A DNA stretch of 64,000 nt, from positions 1 to 64,000 of the forward strand of contig JAVYOA010000002.1 in the NCBI GenBank assembly GCA_038734945.1, in the 5' to 3' direction. This document shows positions 34,558 to 39,967 of the stretch, piece by piece. The DNA is from Fervidicoccaceae archaeon. GTDB lineage: Archaea > Thermoproteota > Thermoprotei_A > Sulfolobales > Fervidicoccaceae. Positions within the stretch are counted from its first letter, which is position 1. The number at the start of each line of letters is the position of its first letter. The position numbers were made by a program, and so were the translations under genes. The notes beneath the pieces are model-generated. The model searched no databases. It was not told the origin of the DNA and saw only the letters and a program-made list of their open reading frames with translations.

Positions 34558-34647
34558 TATTTTTTTAATTCTTCCTTTTTAAAAATACGAAGAGCTGAGG
34601 AACAAAAATAACATTTTAAAACCGCTTGTTCATTACTTTACTTTGTT

Positions 34648-34742
<95 letters not shown>

Positions 34743-34767
34743 TCGTTTCATAGAAAAGGTGAAAGAA

Positions 34768-35007: not shown

Positions 35008-35699
35008 TTTTTGACTTGGTAGTTGACGGCAAAGGTGGAGGCTATCTGTCATCGCTATCAGAAGCTTTGAAAAAGTATGAAATTCCCAAGGAGAGCGCTT
35101 TCATTGTTTTTAATGTCATCCAGAAGCACCCGAACAATCCTTTTATTACGCTAGTCAGCATCATTCTTTCCCAGAACACCAGTGACAGAAATGCTATGCT
35201 AGCTCTTGAGAGGATGGAAAAATACGGAATGACATCGCCGGAGGCTATATTGAAAGCTGGATACCAAAAAGTACTTGAAGCTGTTTATCCGTCCGGAATG
35301 GGCAAAATAAAAGCGAGAAGAATTCTTAACATATCCCAAATTGTCTTAGAAAATGGGGATTTTCTGGAAAAGGTCTGCGAGTTGGGGGAAAAAGGAAAAG
35401 AGCTTCTAATGCAGCTTGAAGGCGTTGGTTTAAAGACGGCAGATGTCTTCATGATTTCCTATTGCAATTATCCTTCATTTCCAGTCGATAGGCACATTGC
35501 TAGAATTACGGAGAGAATTGTTGGAAGAAAGATGAAGTATGAGGAAATTTCGAATTTTTGGAAGGAGAAATTGGGAGCATCTGACTATAAAATAGCGCAC
35601 ATGAAGCTGATAGCTATTGGAAGGGATATTTGCAGAAAAAGAAACCCGAAGTGCGGAATGTGCCCGCTCAGGGAATTCTGTGCTTCGAAGAGGGGGTGA
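35004..35699 (+). CDS. nth: endonuclease III (HhH-GPD, 4Fe-4S)
   Basis: LSQNTSD, LEGVGLKTA, FPVDRH, CRKRNPKCGMCPLREFC. Confidence 0.92.
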   Translation: MIFDLVVDGKGGGYLSSLSEALKKYEIPKESAFIVFNVIQKHPNNPFITLVSIILSQNTSDRNAMLALERMEKYGMTSPEAILKAGYQKVLEAVYPSGMGKIKARRILNISQIVLENGDFLEKVCELGEKGKELLMQLEGVGLKTADVFMISYCNYPSFPVDRHIARITERIVGRKMKYEEISNFWKEKLGASDYKIAHMKLIAIGRDICRKRNPKCGMCPLREFCASKRG

Positions 35700-36231
35700 A
35701 AGTCACATAGAGGAAATCAGAGGTATTCTAATAACAACAAGAACAAACAGAGAGAGAAGTGCAGAAAATGAGCTTGGAAGCTTGCTAATAAGCAGAGGAA
35801 TACCCTTCAGGATGGGGGCCGAGCTTGGTAATGGAGCAGTCCTCTTTTCAACAGAATTTCCATTTAAAGCATATAGGGCAGTAATTTCTTCTCTGCTCTC
35901 TGAACCGATGAGAGTTTATCCTCTTGTTAAGCTGAAGGACCTGGAGAGAATTCTATCATTGGTGAAAATAGATAAGATGAGATGCTATTTGAGGAAAAAA
36001 ATGGAAATCTGCAATGATATTGAGAATTATGCAAGGAAAATAATTGTAGGTAAGAATTTGGATAATACTCAGAGCTCTCTACATGTGATGCTGCACATAC
36101 AGGGATTGGGAGTATTTTATGGATATTCCCCCATTCCAAGAGATTGTGAGAGGTACGAAATGATTTTAAAGATGAGCAACCTTCGGGGATTCTGTTCTTC
36201 ATATGCAGATAAAGTATCAGCCTTGCTGTAA
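35617..36231 (+). CDS. hypothetical protein (N-terminus reminiscent of THUMP-associated domain)
   Basis: ILITTRTNRERSAENEL; start uncertain. Confidence 0.5.
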   Translation: MEGIFAEKETRSAECARSGNSVLRRGGESHIEEIRGILITTRTNRERSAENELGSLLISRGIPFRMGAELGNGAVLFSTEFPFKAYRAVISSLLSEPMRVYPLVKLKDLERILSLVKIDKMRCYLRKKMEICNDIENYARKIIVGKNLDNTQSSLHVMLHIQGLGVFYGYSPIPRDCERYEMILKMSNLRGFCSSYADKVSALL

Positions 36232-36268
36232 AGAGGAGAAATGGCGGCGGGGCCCCGCTCTTGAAAAG

Positions 36269-36356
36269 TAGCGGGGGGTGGATTCGAACCACCGACCTCG
36301 GGGTTCCTCCGAGGCCTCAGGCCCCTTATGAGCTTCGCGGGTTCGGGGCTACCGCC
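36269..36356 (-). tRNA. split tRNA-iMet(CAT) 3' half (positions 31-73 at 36333-36269) with leader 36356-36334 and 22-nt intron 36305-36326
   Basis: GGCGGTAGCCCCGAACCCGCGAA|GCTCATA[intron]ACCCCGAGGTCGGTGGTTCGAATCCACCCCCCGCTA; no D arm; leader complementary to the trailer of the 5' half. Confidence 0.9.
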
Positions 36357-36377
36357 ACTGCTTTATATGCATGGAAA

Positions 36378-36391
36378 GGATTAAAAGGTTT
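36378..36391 (-). promoter_or_regulatory. BRE/TATA-like promoter for the tRNA 3' half
   Basis: AAACCTTTTAATCC about 25 nt upstream of the GGCGG leader. Confidence 0.55.
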
Positions 36392-36393
36392 TA

Positions 36394-36900
36394 CTATTTG
36401 AGAACTGTGTCATTCAAAACAGATTCAGCCCATTTCCTTCCATAGAACCTTGAGACTTCCTCGAAATTTTCCTCTACGAAAATCCTGAGGGCTTTTCTGC
36501 TCAGGACATCTGCTGCTTCGTTGTTCTCCCTTGGAATCCACTCGATTTTATATGACTTGAAATTTCTGAGAAGATTGATAGATTTGTTGTAAAGGGGGAT
36601 CAGCCTGGGTGCCTTTACTCTGTATTTGCCAATGAGTTGCTTGATTACGAGCTGGGAGTCTCCTCTTATGGTAATATCTTTTTCAGAAAGATCGCTTTCA
36701 ATAATTAGCTCCAGCCCTCTTATCAGAGCTGTGTACTCAGCAACGTTGTTTGAAACATTGTCTCCTCTAAATCCAGCACCTACAATTCCAAATTCTTCTT
36801 TCAGAACCTTTTTATTCTCGAAGATGACAACGCCGTATGTAGCTATCCCTCCAGGATTGATAGGCTCACACAGACCATCAAAATATAAAAGGAGACCCAA
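36394..36900 (-). CDS. rnhA: ribonuclease HI
   Basis: YFDG, SNNVAEY, GDSQLV, WIPRENN..AD. Confidence 0.93.
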   Translation of the reverse strand: MGLLLYFDGLCEPINPGGIATYGVVIFENKKVLKEEFGIVGAGFRGDNVSNNVAEYTALIRGLELIIESDLSEKDITIRGDSQLVIKQLIGKYRVKAPRLIPLYNKSINLLRNFKSYKIEWIPRENNEAADVLSRKALRIFVEENFEEVSRFYGRKWAESVLNDTVLK

Positions 36901-36911
36901 GCATTTCCACC

Positions 36912-37709
36912 TTAGAGCTTATAAACCGCAGTGTTTCTCTGCTTCAGCATGGGCAGCTTCCTTCTCACTTCTTCTATTTCGGAAACTTCTATGGTGATTT
37001 CTCTGTATTTTTCCCCTACACCAAGATCGTATATTACTTCTCCCATTGGACCTATGATGGTACTTCTTCCTGTAAAATTCTTTCCATACTGATTTACTAT
37101 AGCTAAGAATATTGTGTTCTCATGCGCTCTGGCCCTCCCCAATACATGCAGAATTTCTTCCTTCATGTCTCCCCTATACCAACCAGAAGGAACGATCACG
37201 AGCTCAGCACCTCCTAGGGCATAAGTTCTGAATAGTTCTGGAAACCTTATGTCATAGCATATTGCTACTGAGATTTTCGTGCCTTTCAGCTCGATTATTG
37301 AAGATGGTGCGTTTCCCGGAAGCATGAATTCGGATTCTCTATAGTCGTAAGCATCAAAGAGATGAGCTTTTCTATATCTCAGCAGAATTTCTCCTTTTGG
37401 ACTGAAAATCACTGCTTCATTATAGACCTTTGGTTTAGAGGCAGGAGTGAAGAGCGTTGCTAAGATGTGGACGCCTAGTTTGCTTGCCAATTCTTTTAGT
37501 GAAGAAGCAAAAGCTCCATCCAATTCTTCTGCCATCATATATATTCTATCTGGTTCATCTCCTGTAGGATTGTACATGAAATACTCTGGAGTAATAATGA
37601 GATCTGCTTCCCTCAAGTTTATTATATTATTCAACTTTTCTATGTTTTTTGCCTTATCCTTAGTGCTTTCCATCTGTACTATGCCAAGAGTTATACTTCT
37701 ATTTTTCAT
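36912..37709 (-). CDS. carbon-nitrogen hydrolase (nitrilase/Nit family)
   Basis: E-K-C triad: TPEY, YRKAHLFD, ICYDIRFPE. Confidence 0.9.
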   Translation of the reverse strand: MKNRSITLGIVQMESTKDKAKNIEKLNNIINLREADLIITPEYFMYNPTGDEPDRIYMMAEELDGAFASSLKELASKLGVHILATLFTPASKPKVYNEAVIFSPKGEILLRYRKAHLFDAYDYRESEFMLPGNAPSSIIELKGTKISVAICYDIRFPELFRTYALGGAELVIVPSGWYRGDMKEEILHVLGRARAHENTIFLAIVNQYGKNFTGRSTIIGPMGEVIYDLGVGEKYREITIEVSEIEEVRRKLPMLKQRNTAVYKL

Positions 37710-37927
37710 TTTTATTCCCCGAGGAATGTTCAAAGCTTATTTTTAATTTGATCACTAAGAAAAAATCCTCGAGAATGTATAAATATTATTTGGAAAGCAT
37801 GGAGTCTGATGTCCTCTCTCTCATAAAATATGAAACTTTTAGGTTGTAAATAAGCTAGTAGGGAAATACTTATTATTCCCATCCGATAGAGAAAAAGTTG
37901 TCATAACATAAACGGAAGGTATGAATT

Positions 37928-38389
37928 TTGAACGAAGAAAACGAATCTGAAAGAAATGTAACAAAAAAAGTTATGGAGCTAAAACAAGGCGAAAGCTCCA
38001 TAACAATAAAGGGAAGGGTTCTTGAAGCAAACGAACCAAAAACCATAGAAACGAAGAAAGGGACAAGAACAATAAGTGAGGCAGTTCTAGGCGACGAAAC
38101 TGGTAGAGTGAAGATGACATTGTGGGGAGATAAGGCAGGAAGCATTGAGGAAGGACAGGCTGTGAAGATAACGAACGCATGGACCACTGGATATAGAGGG
38201 AAGGTTCAACTGAATGTTGGGGCTAGCTCAGAAATAACTCAAATTGGAGATGAAGAAGTTCCCAATGCTGAGGAGATCCCCGAATCAGAGCCAGCAGCTC
38301 CTATGGAAGAGAGGAGGGGAGGCTTTGATAGGAGAGGAGGAAGGCGAGATTACAGACAAGGCGGTGGCTTCAGAAGAAGAGAATGGTGA
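37928..38389 (+). CDS. ssb: crenarchaeal single-stranded DNA-binding protein
   Basis: Single OB fold (GDETGRVKMTLWG) with R/G-rich tail. Confidence 0.9.
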   Translation: MNEENESERNVTKKVMELKQGESSITIKGRVLEANEPKTIETKKGTRTISEAVLGDETGRVKMTLWGDKAGSIEEGQAVKITNAWTTGYRGKVQLNVGASSEITQIGDEEVPNAEEIPESEPAAPMEERRGGFDRRGGRRDYRQGGGFRRREW

Positions 38390-38397
38390 GCTGCTAA

Positions 38398-38682
38398 ATG
38401 AGCTATGCGGAAATAAAGGAAAAGAGATTTATGAGAAAGGGAGAAGAAGCAGGAACGAATAACGAGAACTTCTACATTACAGATGAATCTAATGTAACCT
38501 ATGAGCTATCTGCAGCTGTCTATTATGTCTGGAAGCTTGCTGATGGTATCAAGACAGTTGAGGAAATAGTTAAGCAAGCCAGTTCTGAGCTGAATATGCC
38601 AGAAGAAGAGCTTCAAGAACCAATAGCTGTTATCATGCTCAAGCTGCTCGAAAATAATCTTGTTTCAGAAAGCCTTGAATAA
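38398..38682 (+). CDS. PqqD-like (RRE) small protein
   Basis: YELSAAVYYVWKLADGIKTVEEIV...LLENNLV. Confidence 0.75.
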   Translation: MSYAEIKEKRFMRKGEEAGTNNENFYITDESNVTYELSAAVYYVWKLADGIKTVEEIVKQASSELNMPEEELQEPIAVIMLKLLENNLVSESLE

Positions 38683-38695
38683 AAATATATAAAAA
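38681..38695 (+). promoter_or_regulatory. BRE/TATA-like promoter for the tRNA 5' half
   Basis: AAAAATATATAAAAA about 25 nt upstream of the GGCGGGG leader at 38718. Confidence 0.6.
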
Positions 38696-38730
38696 CCCTT
38701 GGCCTAATTTTTTTATTGGCGGGGAAAAAA

Positions 38731-38780
38731 AGCGGGGTAGGGCAGCCAGGTAGCCCGCGGGAGGTGCGTGGGCTACCGCC
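38731..38780 (+). tRNA. split tRNA-iMet 5' half (positions 1-30 at 38731-38761) with complementary trailer 38762-38780
   Basis: AGCGGGGTAGGGCAGCCAGGTAGCCCGCGGG|AGGTGCGTGGGCTACCGCC; acceptor 5' strand, D arm, part of anticodon stem; T-run follows. Confidence 0.9.
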
Positions 38781-38809
38781 CTATGATTTTTTCCAAAAAC
38801 AGAAAAAAT

Positions 38810-39052
38810 CTAGAGCTTCTGAACTCTTATAGCTCCAACCGGACAAGATCCGGCTGCTTGTACGGCGCATTCATAGAGATCCTCGGGTATTTCTCCTTCT
38901 GAAAGTGAATCCGTCAAGTTAGTGGAGTACTTATCCACAACTCTGTTTTTGCCGTTATCGCTTCCAAGAACGAATACTTGCGGACATACTGTGGGAGCTA
39001 CACCACATGCTATGCATGTATCTCTGTCAACTGTTACCTTTACTTTTGCCAT
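38810..39052 (-). CDS. monocluster ferredoxin
   Basis: VDRDTCIACGVAPTVCP...CPVGAI. Confidence 0.85.
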   Translation of the reverse strand: MAKVKVTVDRDTCIACGVAPTVCPQVFVLGSDNGKNRVVDKYSTNLTDSLSEGEIPEDLYECAVQAAGSCPVGAIRVQKL

Positions 39053-39238
39053 TGAGTTCACCCAGATTATTTTTAAACTCGTTATATTTAAATATGCAAC
39101 AATTGTTCCGAAAGTTCACATTTAAAAGTAATATCTTTCTTAGAAAAGGGATTTTTGGAAAGAGATCTATTTTGAATTGATTTGGCAAACGAGTCTCTAG
39201 CATAAAGTATTTAAATAGAATATAGTTGCAGAGAAGAG

Positions 39239-39967
39239 CTATTTGTTGAATAGAGTATTCTCAAGATTTTTCAAGAATTTTATGTCTCCAGCTGTCGATA
39301 TAATGACGCCGCTAACAAGATCTTCTATTTTATCTAGCACATTCTTAACGGTTGAAGCATCATAGCTCGGCTGGGAAATTCTCTCTATTATGCTCAAGTT
39401 CTTCTCTGTTTTTATTATGATATATGGATAAAGCTCTATCTTCAATTCTCTGCCTCTTTCAGAAATTCTCTCGAGCTTTTCAATTTCTTCCATAGTCATT
39501 CTGAGGATCAGGAATTTTTTGAAGCCCAGTGATAGTCTCTCCAAAATTTTTTGCTCATCATATCTCATGCTTATAATTGCTCCCAGCTTTTTTTCCAATT
39601 TGTAGTTTTTTGCCAGGGATAGGGCCTCTTCGGTAGTTATCTGGCTTTTAAATCCTCTCTCATCCTTCTCACCGGAAGTAACAAAAACGGCATCAATCCC
39701 AGTTAGATTAGCTGCCGAAACAAGTGAAATGAAGGAAATTGGGTTGAGATCGCTCAGCCTAATATGAGAAAATATTTCAGCTTTGGGACACTGTTGCTTT
39801 AAAATGCTGCCTATGACAATGGAGTTTGCTGAGGGGATGCTGAGTGGAGATTCAGGAATGTCCACTCCTGAGAAGATTGATTTCTCCTCACATATGAGAG
39901 AGTTTGCCTGCTTTAGTCTCTTTTCCTCCTTTCCTAGCTCAAATGATAATTCGGCAAAAAGCTTCAA
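39239..39967 (-). CDS. methylenetetrahydrofolate reductase (MetF)-like protein
   Basis: VDIPESP..P, HIRLSDLN, VTSGE resemble the MTHFR barrel; divergent from the metE pair. Confidence 0.55.
   Translation of the reverse strand: MKLFAELSFELGKEEKRLKQANSLICEEKSIFSGVDIPESPLSIPSANSIVIGSILKQQCPKAEIFSHIRLSDLNPISFISLVSAANLTGIDAVFVTSGEKDERGFKSQITTEEALSLAKNYKLEKKLGAIISMRYDEQKILERLSLGFKKFLILRMTMEEIEKLERISERGRELKIELYPYIIIKTEKNLSIIERISQPSYDASTVKNVLDKIEDLVSGVIISTAGDIKFLKNLENTLFNK

Follow-up and report, generated by a model that had tools for sequence, protein, structure and literature searches.

A probable trans-spliced initiator tRNA-Met encoded by two dispersed half-genes in a Fervidicoccaceae archaeon

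How does a cell start its proteins if no contiguous gene for an initiator tRNA can be found in its genome? The question is raised by a 64-kb stretch of DNA from a hot-spring Fervidicoccaceae archaeon (the window, positions 1 to 64,000 of contig JAVYOA010000002.1), in which the two parts of an initiator tRNA-Met (iMet) gene lie 2.4 kb apart on opposite strands. The answer favored here, to which we assign a probability of roughly 0.85, is that they form a functional split gene for the only iMet of the cell, and that their transcripts are joined by trans-splicing. This reading is based on the anatomy of the locus, the uniqueness of the gene in the genome, its conservation in the genus, the homology of its boundaries to those of cis introns in relatives, and the genes for the enzymes that trans-splicing would need. 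Because the initiator tRNA is single-copy and indispensable, every protein in this organism would then depend on an RNA trans-splicing step. Throughout, G000 denotes the genome of the window and all other G numbers denote relatives in the genome collection that was searched.

Two half-genes and the tRNA they would make

The coordinates and letters of both halves can be read directly on the window, and the letters quoted in an initial annotation, which had placed the half-genes at 38731-38761(+) and 36333-36269(-), are indeed found there. The 5' exon (38731..38761, plus strand) provides tRNA positions 1-30 in 31 nt, with one extra base in the D-loop, and is identical in G001 and G002. It runs into a 19-nt trailer (38762..38780, plus strand) made of a bulged A followed by a 6-nt and an 11-nt tract, both of which pair with the leader of the other half. 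That 23-nt leader (36334..36356, minus strand) contains the corresponding 11-nt and 6-nt tracts, then CGCG, which pairs with C25-G28 of the 5' exon, and then the AA of the 3' bulge. The 3' exon is itself interrupted: positions 31-37, including the anticodon CAT (36327..36333, minus strand), are separated from positions 38-73 (36269..36304, minus strand), which are present as a single copy in the genome, by a second intron. This 22-nt cis intron (36305..36326, minus strand) occupies the canonical 37/38 site, is reported by ARAGORN as i(38,22) on the joined halves, and has an equal position in G002, G004, G005 and G006.

Since the halves lie on opposite strands, one common transcript is excluded, and each half has putative motifs for independent transcription, namely a conserved A/T-rich box about 27 nt upstream and a T-run downstream. 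For the 5' half, a box resembling a B recognition element (BRE) and TATA element (38685..38695, plus strand) stands ~27 nt before the predicted transcript start, with a similar box at equal distance in G001, G002 and G004. A T6 run (38787..38792, plus strand) is its likely terminator, and T5-T6 runs occupy the matching place in G001 and G002. The BRE/TATA-like box of the 3' half (36378..36392, minus strand) is ~27 nt before the leader and conserved in G002, while a T-rich run (36241-36230, minus strand) lies beyond the outer trailer described below. The initial annotation had credited each half with a downstream T-run and its own TATA-like element. Motifs of both kinds are seen, except that the conserved box of the 3' half is the one at 36392-36378(-) and not the nearer ATATAAA at 36368-36362.

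When the halves are joined in silico, ARAGORN calls a tRNA-Met(cat) of 96 nt with a 22-nt intron, or of 74 nt once the intron is removed. The 74-mer folds into a cloverleaf (-36.1 kcal/mol), and the spliced product agrees with the uninterrupted iMet genes of 9 relatives, drawn from 4 families, at 70-73 of 74 positions. Archaeal initiator tRNAs are marked by an A1:U72 pair, three G:C pairs at 29-31:39-41 and the anticodon CAU; the corresponding A1:U72, G29-G31:C39-C41 and CAT are all read from the joined sequence. The clean 74-nt cloverleaf with initiator marks that had been proposed for the joined halves is thus borne out by the gene caller, the fold and the identity to relatives. It had also been anticipated that standard annotation would miss such a gene. 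ARAGORN makes no call at the halves, whether run on either half alone or on the window, and an Rfam scan of 35500-39500 yields no tRNA hit over threshold, the 3' half scoring 15.7 bits against a cut-off of 29. As standard tRNA finders miss the split gene, an automated annotation of this genus that relies on them would be expected to come without an initiator tRNA. Two other Rfam matches were judged spurious: one to Cyano-2 (21.7 bits, cut-off 40), which is a hairpin of the 5' half, and one to sR46 (21.8 bits, cut-off 50), which lies inside the SSB-like open reading frame (ORF).

Could another gene in the same genome provide the initiator? G000 comprises 1.34 Mb in 9 contigs, is 99.95% complete, and gives 41 tRNA hits above the Rfam cut-off. 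Crenarchaeota usually have 46 anticodons, and the 41 hits cover 41 of these; iMet, Lys(CUU), Gln(UUG), Gln(CUG) and Trp are absent. Two other tRNAs with a CAT anticodon are present, one elongator-like with an intron and the other nearly identical to tRNA-Ile(GAT); neither has the three G:C pairs, and the pair at 1:72 is G1:C72 in each. A third 'Met(cat)' called by ARAGORN (contig C4, 22843-22933) was rejected, being a tRNA-Thr(TGT) with a non-canonical D-arm intron inside which the CAT falls. Each iMet exon occurs once in G000, with no second copy at up to 6 mismatches. An intact iMet gene elsewhere in the genome, together with a lack of transcripts from the halves, had been named at the outset as evidence that would speak against a functional split gene; a combination of Rfam, anticodon reading and exon search finds no intact gene in this 99.95% complete genome.

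Pairing and proposed processing of the halves

The complementarity between trailer and leader is as initially described (11 bp plus 5 of 6): 11 perfect bp, a bulged T and then 5 of 6 bp form a duplex of -31.1 kcal/mol, an energy matched by just 1 of 3000 random 23-mers of the window. Because the halves are on opposite strands, this pairing appears in the DNA as a direct repeat, with the 11-nt tract occurring exactly at 36346-36356 and 38770-38780 of the plus strand. A further, outer helix of 7 bp has one strand on each half and surrounds the iMet gene as a whole. It is formed by a G-rich 7-nt tract of the outer leader (38718..38724, plus strand) and 36252-36246 of the minus strand, the latter lying in an outer trailer (36242..36258, minus strand) that consists of a G-rich tract, the 7-nt pairing tract and then GCCA. 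The outer tracts, followed by R-CCA and a T-rich run, resemble a second acceptor stem whose CCA is encoded, an arrangement seen at 30+ related loci. The helix is kept in most families of the order, and two genomes of family f5 carry a different but complementary (compensatory) pair; nothing specific on an outer leader/trailer helix was found in the literature searched. When the 5' leader is omitted, an unconstrained cofold of the two RNAs yields the D and T arms, the trailer/leader helix and, in trans, the acceptor stem. As a separate observation, the trailer can also pair with the D-arm/anticodon-stem strand of the exon it follows (38748-38777, plus strand), and in the minimum-energy cofold the resulting hairpin competes with annealing in trans; it lies behind the spurious Cyano-2 match, and the self-complementarity is absent in G135 and G166.

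At the junction, a bulge-helix-bulge (BHB)-type register is feasible, in which a 4-bp CGCG:CGCG helix (C25-G28 with the leader) is flanked by the 3-nt bulges GG|A and AA|G. The boundary letters at 30/31 are the same as those of 23 cis introns found at this site in relatives. G000 has two EndA genes of family PF01974, located at C1:82711 and C2:192847 (a 197-aa frame at 103 bits and a 167-aa frame at 44 bits), and one RtcB gene (PF01139, 584 bits). We take the EndA pair to provide the catalytic and the structural subunit of the heterotetramer known from crenarchaea. A broad-specificity, heterotetramer-type splicing endonuclease is therefore probably available, to judge its subunit arrangement from the two paralogues.

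Processing may be envisaged as beginning with two RNAs, one from each strand and each with its own promoter. RNA 1, from ~38718 to the T-run at 38787, would contain positions 1-30 and the 19-nt trailer, and RNA 2, on the minus strand, would start at ~36357, end in the T-rich run near 36235 and contain the 23-nt leader, positions 31-73 and the 22-nt intron. Held together by the trailer/leader helix (11 + 5 bp), by pairing in the acceptor stem and by the 7-bp outer helix, the two RNAs would have both 30/31 ends set in a relaxed BHB with its bulges GG|A and AA|G. Both bulges, as well as the cis intron, would then be cut by the heterotetramer-type endonuclease, and RtcB would ligate G30 to G31 and A37 to A38.

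Helices of such length could also hold the two halves together without ligation, yielding a nicked tRNA, or the halves could each have a separate role. An attached leader and trailer, however, would block the G29-G31:C39-C41 pairs, and the boundary letters are those of introns that need to be removed in relatives, where the gene is the only iMet locus matched by two exon queries. With genes for both RtcB and EndA present as well, unligated halves seem very unlikely to be the working form.

The locus in the genus and in sister genera

The arrangement can be compared within the family, which is represented by 8 species genomes in the collection. In G002, the two halves again lie on opposite strands, separated by 2.5 kb and by the four genes that stand between them in the window, and in G001, the 5' half and three of the four intervening genes are followed by a contig end. 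Neither genome has an intact iMet copy, and the exon queries give one match in each. As read from their genomes, all three species of the genus share the split arrangement. The exons are unchanged, trailer and leader differ by one base each, and the positions of the boxes are kept, while nearby intergenic DNA has diverged. Loss of complementarity in close relatives would, according to the initial annotation, have counted against a functional gene; instead, pairing persists while the flanks diverge. At the level of sequence, each prediction of a functional split iMet that was tested held.

These data bear on the idea that the halves are decaying relics and that a working, intact iMet gene sits in the unassembled part of the genome. 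The assembly is in 9 contigs, tRNA genes often break assemblies, and contigs from the sequencing runs do end at conserved exons. Yet the genome is 99.95% complete, no second exon copy exists in G000, and only single matches are found in G001 and G002. Relics would not be expected to retain 70-73/74 identity to working genes, nor does decay sit well with exons unchanged in three species whose complementarity and boxes are kept as the surrounding intergenic DNA drifts. We regard this explanation as very improbable.

An assembly artefact is another conceivable source of a broken gene: in a metagenome-derived genome, conserved exons common to other community members, which leave loose contig ends, could cause a contiguous intron-bearing gene to be wrongly broken and flipped. 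Contigs from two DNA runs, one of 3849 nt (run X1) and one of 16835 nt (run X3), nevertheless run through 36270-38850 without interruption, by which measure an assembly error does not account for the arrangement, and the separately assembled G002 and G001 show the same order and orientation. The chance of an artefact appears minute.

How the gene came to be divided is suggested by sister genera. G004, G005 and G006 each have one contiguous gene with a short 30/31 intron bearing identical boundary letters, plus the 37/38 intron; G005 and G006 have an additional intron in the T-loop. In all three the iMet gene is flanked upstream by SSB-like and PqqD-like genes and downstream by a 204-aa gene, an EndoIII-like gene and an 82-aa gene. 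In the window, both flanking blocks are intact and their order is inverted. Four genes, identified as ORFs with Pfam matches, lie between the halves: an RNase H-like gene (36394-36900, minus strand) and a CN-hydrolase gene (36912-37733, minus strand), which have come to stand between the blocks, an SSB-like OB fold gene (37928-38389, plus strand) and a PqqD-like gene (38398-38682, plus strand). No integrase, transposase or LAGLIDADG gene was found in 36394..38682 (Pfam of the four genes and the profile of the ORF that lies between iMet pieces in relatives), nor any recombinase or transposase between the inverted blocks (Pfam). Blocks that are inverted but each intact would be expected if one breakpoint of an inversion fell within the 30/31 interruption. 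We therefore infer an ancestor interrupted at 30/31, in which an inversion parted the SSB gene, PqqD gene and 5' part from the 3' part, 204-aa gene and EndoIII-like gene. Opposite-strand halves of iMet are confined to the genus of the window.

A split that looks inversion-made might instead reflect a DNA inversion switch, which would restore a contiguous gene in part of the population and make trans-splicing unneeded. No inverted repeats flank the 2.4-kb segment, however, the only shared tract being the 11-nt direct repeat. Alternative joints were absent from three DNA runs, as judged from contigs, which drop rare forms, and the orientation is fixed in three species, making such a switch highly improbable.

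Several observations do weigh against a functional trans-spliced gene. Promoters and terminators are known as sequence motifs only, and a T4 run right after A73 could end some transcripts ahead of the outer trailer. Metatranscriptome X13 gave 0 matching reads from ~3% of the run, which is too little to inform on expression. The 3' half of G001 was not assembled, and only two substitutions touch the helix within the genus, so that covariation there is minimal. Plain thermodynamics prefers a register other than the BHB, the BHB register (-36.2 kcal/mol) lying 2.4 above the best alternative (-38.6), with values of -13.4 and -16.3, respectively, at 80 C. In a cofold with the full 5' precursor, the trailer pairs with its own D-arm strand in place of the leader, although the outer helix forms. 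Finally, the motif is a relaxed one that lacks an outer exon helix on the 5' side, and cleavage would consequently hinge on the broad-specificity enzyme presumed from the two EndA paralogues. The relaxed BHB cut at 30/31 that was first put forward is therefore supported as a feasible structure whose boundary letters match those of cis introns, but it is not the structure of minimum energy.

Interrupted initiator genes of the order and other apparently split tRNAs

Is the interruption at 30/31 peculiar to this genus? The 5' exon was matched in 230 of the 325 genomes of the order. Among the 199 genomes that are at least 90% complete, the exon is followed by the 30/31 boundary in 33, a lower bound because G012 escapes the search pattern. 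Most of these (23/33) have a short cis intron; the other ten are without it (G000, G002, G010, G117, G127, G129, G142, G146, G166 and G018). A 14-base junction pattern run across the whole collection found chance matches in unrelated bacteria only.

Long forms of the interruption reveal what may have occupied the site. In G129, G130, G135 and G018 (loci L212, L213, L214 and L218), the pieces are 1.2-1.5 kb apart on the same strand and enclose an antisense ORF of 359-379 aa. G127 has a like spacing of 1.4 kb by match positions, and in G146 (L219) the 5' piece is followed by an antisense ORF that extends for 245 aa up to the contig end, before any 3' piece. Sequence comparison places this ORF near, but below, the threshold for LAGLIDADG_3 in Pfam (20.7 bits, cut-off 22.5), with an E-value of 0.14 for an I-DmoI chimera, and its database homologues are few, all unnamed or 'hypothetical'. 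A model of the G129 ORF, built on an alignment of 9 sequences including the ORFs of G130, G135 and G018, reaches a predicted local distance difference test (pLDDT) score of 90.1. The 21 best Foldseek matches of this model are all of LAGLIDADG type, at low template modeling (TM) scores of 0.25-0.48; they range over homing endonucleases, some of them engineered, a maturase, inteins that bear an endonuclease and the WhiA domain. The archaeal intron-encoded I-Tsp061I is among them, as is I-DmoI lower down. As modeled, the ORF between the tandem 30/31 pieces has a LAGLIDADG fold. An endonuclease ORF between the boundaries is what identifies a mobile BHB intron; it is present in these relatives and absent from the window. 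In G010, the pieces are ~215 nt apart and enclose a 38-residue ORF remnant with stop codons. The ORF profile has no match in G000, G001, G002 or G004-G006, while its positive control recovered 5 of 5 genomes.

The long and split forms share the elements seen in the window. An A/T box stands 25-32 nt upstream of the leader in all 8 of those examined, and the trailer/leader helix is kept among the 8 despite different letters, with two-sided changes in G135, G166 and G018. Averaged over the 8 genomes, the duplex energy is -38.6 kcal/mol for cognate pairs, -28.0 for non-cognate pairs and -15.8 for shuffled ones, the cognate leader being the best partner in 5 of 8 rows. Taken together, the forms seen in relatives suggest a mobile intron as the source of the split.

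The 37/38 site hosts a second class of insertions, of 1.2-1.6 kb, in G035, G034, G118, G137 and G122 (L047, L041, L215, L216 and L217), which have a sense-strand ORF with a similar GDG motif. The 37/38 insertion of G007 (L223) contains an unrelated 463-aa antisense ORF without that motif. Trailer/leader helices of 15 bp are seen by eye at the insertions of G035 and G007. G122 has an insertion in the T-loop too, with a second GDG-type ORF of 225 aa. In the G135 bin, which has 7% contamination, the iMet 5' region occurs in two copies, one with a short intron and one with the ORF, on contigs C209 and C214; these could represent two strains or a polymorphism for the element.

Together with iMet, disrupted genes for Lys(CUU), the two Gln tRNAs and Trp account for the five anticodons missing from the Rfam hits of G000. 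The Lys(CUU) gene appears to be cut at 30/31, with its 5' part at 427908-427938 of contig C9 and its 3' part in tandem ~140 nt downstream (to 428137). The two pieces share a 12-bp trailer/leader tract; the first is followed by a T-run and the second preceded by an A/T box. Elsewhere the pieces are 9 kb apart on opposite strands (G002) or ~88 kb apart (G004). Two Gln 5' parts lie on different contigs, one with TTG (C3, 24352, minus strand) and one with CTG (C4, 17898, plus strand). There is a single Gln 3' part (C9, 274216-274262, minus strand), whose leader has two overlapping tracts, one complementary to each trailer; this 3' part and a portion of its leader also occur in G001, G002 and G004. 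Once joined, the Gln and Lys products do not give cloverleaves as their minimum-energy folds. From their anatomy and the missing anticodons, Lys(CUU) and both Gln tRNAs appear to be split in G000. The tRNA-Trp gene is contiguous, spanning ~200 nt with long introns (C9, 44116-44314), and Rfam sees its 3' end only (15.9 bits).

These strands can be drawn into one origin, for which we see about even odds. The iMet gene of the order would be a recurrent landing site for ORF-bearing BHB introns, a stepwise and still-observable route would lead from mobile intron to dispersed split gene, and G000 would run four split tRNAs (iMet, Lys-CUU, Gln-UUG and Gln-CUG), with the Gln pair sharing one 3' half. 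In a 30/31 form with an antisense LAGLIDADG gene, the 3' exon could have gained its own promoter, giving tandem half-genes that are independently transcribed. G010 would then have lost the endonuclease bar its 38-residue remnant, and the genus of the window would have lost all of it and inverted one half.

The iMet gene joins the known class of archaeal split tRNA genes. The split tRNAs of Caldivirga maquilingensis, which comprise Gly, Ala and others, differ from it in being other tRNAs in another order. This free-living crenarchaeon resembles G000 in having several split (and tri-split) tRNAs with pieces common to isoacceptors, comparable to the single Gln 3' half here (Fujishima and Kanai 2014, PMC4033280). 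The same authors give a total of 29 trans-spliced tRNA genes from seven genomes. Further parallels come from the passages on individual genes in Chan et al. 2011 (PMC3218864). The split iMet(CAU) of Nanoarchaeum equitans likewise has two separately encoded halves, a complementary leader and trailer and a BHB-type cut. Its cut, however, is at 37/38 and not 30/31, and its host is a reduced symbiont of another phylum; the 3' half described here differs also in having a cis 37/38 intron, and sister genera keep a contiguous intron-bearing gene. The split Lys(CUU) of Staphylothermus marinus and S. hellenicus shares the 30/31 cut, the broad crenarchaeotal group and a spacing of a few kb between halves, and the Lys(CUU) of G000 is cut at 30/31 as in Staphylothermus. 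It is nonetheless a different tRNA, whereas the loss of iMet could not be buffered by another isoacceptor. The split Asp(GUC) of Aeropyrum pernix and Thermosphaera aggregans is likewise a recent split: a close relative retains an uninterrupted gene, synteny ends inside the tRNA gene, and the T. aggregans halves are on opposite strands, as here; these genes are cut at 37/38, and the passages devoted to them link no intron-encoded ORF to the split (PMC3218864). The permuted iMet of Thermofilum pendens is also a disrupted single-copy initiator gene with BHB processing and a canonical intron kept, but it is permuted at 59/60 within one transcript and does not involve two (PMC3218864). Crenarchaeal rRNA genes have BHB introns whose ORFs encode LAGLIDADG homing endonucleases (PMC4496867), I-DmoI and I-Tsp061I being examples, which resembles the iMet pieces of relatives that enclose one LAGLIDADG-fold ORF. 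The iMet case differs from those introns in that the host is a tRNA gene, the ORF at 30/31 runs antisense to it, and a separate promoter-like box precedes the 3' piece; in the window, an ORF of this kind is lacking.

No crenarchaeal split iMet is reported in the literature searched, whose scope lay outside subscription journals, GtRNAdb and supplements, and the same search returned no link between split tRNAs and a homing-endonuclease gene. The initial annotation had likewise known of no split iMet in this lineage. That novelty holds for the split gene as far as the search extends, but not for the 30/31 cut, which is not peculiar to the lineage: tandem split-like forms of this gene occur in several other families of the order.

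Whether tRNA halves are ancestral or late products of gene disruption is an old dispute. Related genomes display four states of this one gene, namely contiguous with an intron, tandem with an endonuclease, tandem with a remnant, and dispersed and inverted, which makes a late, intron-derived and mobile-element-driven model directly testable. Interest is raised by the indispensability of the initiator, by the apparent four split tRNAs of one genome, and by intermediates that tie the split to an ORF-bearing intron. If the joint origin proposed above is true, they would trace a route, stepwise and still open to observation, by which a mobile intron turns into a dispersed split tRNA gene. As a minor observation on the neighborhood, a tRNA-Pro(GGG) gene with an intron (34647-34744, plus strand) lies 1.5 kb from the 3' half, beside the conserved 82-aa and EndoIII-like genes.

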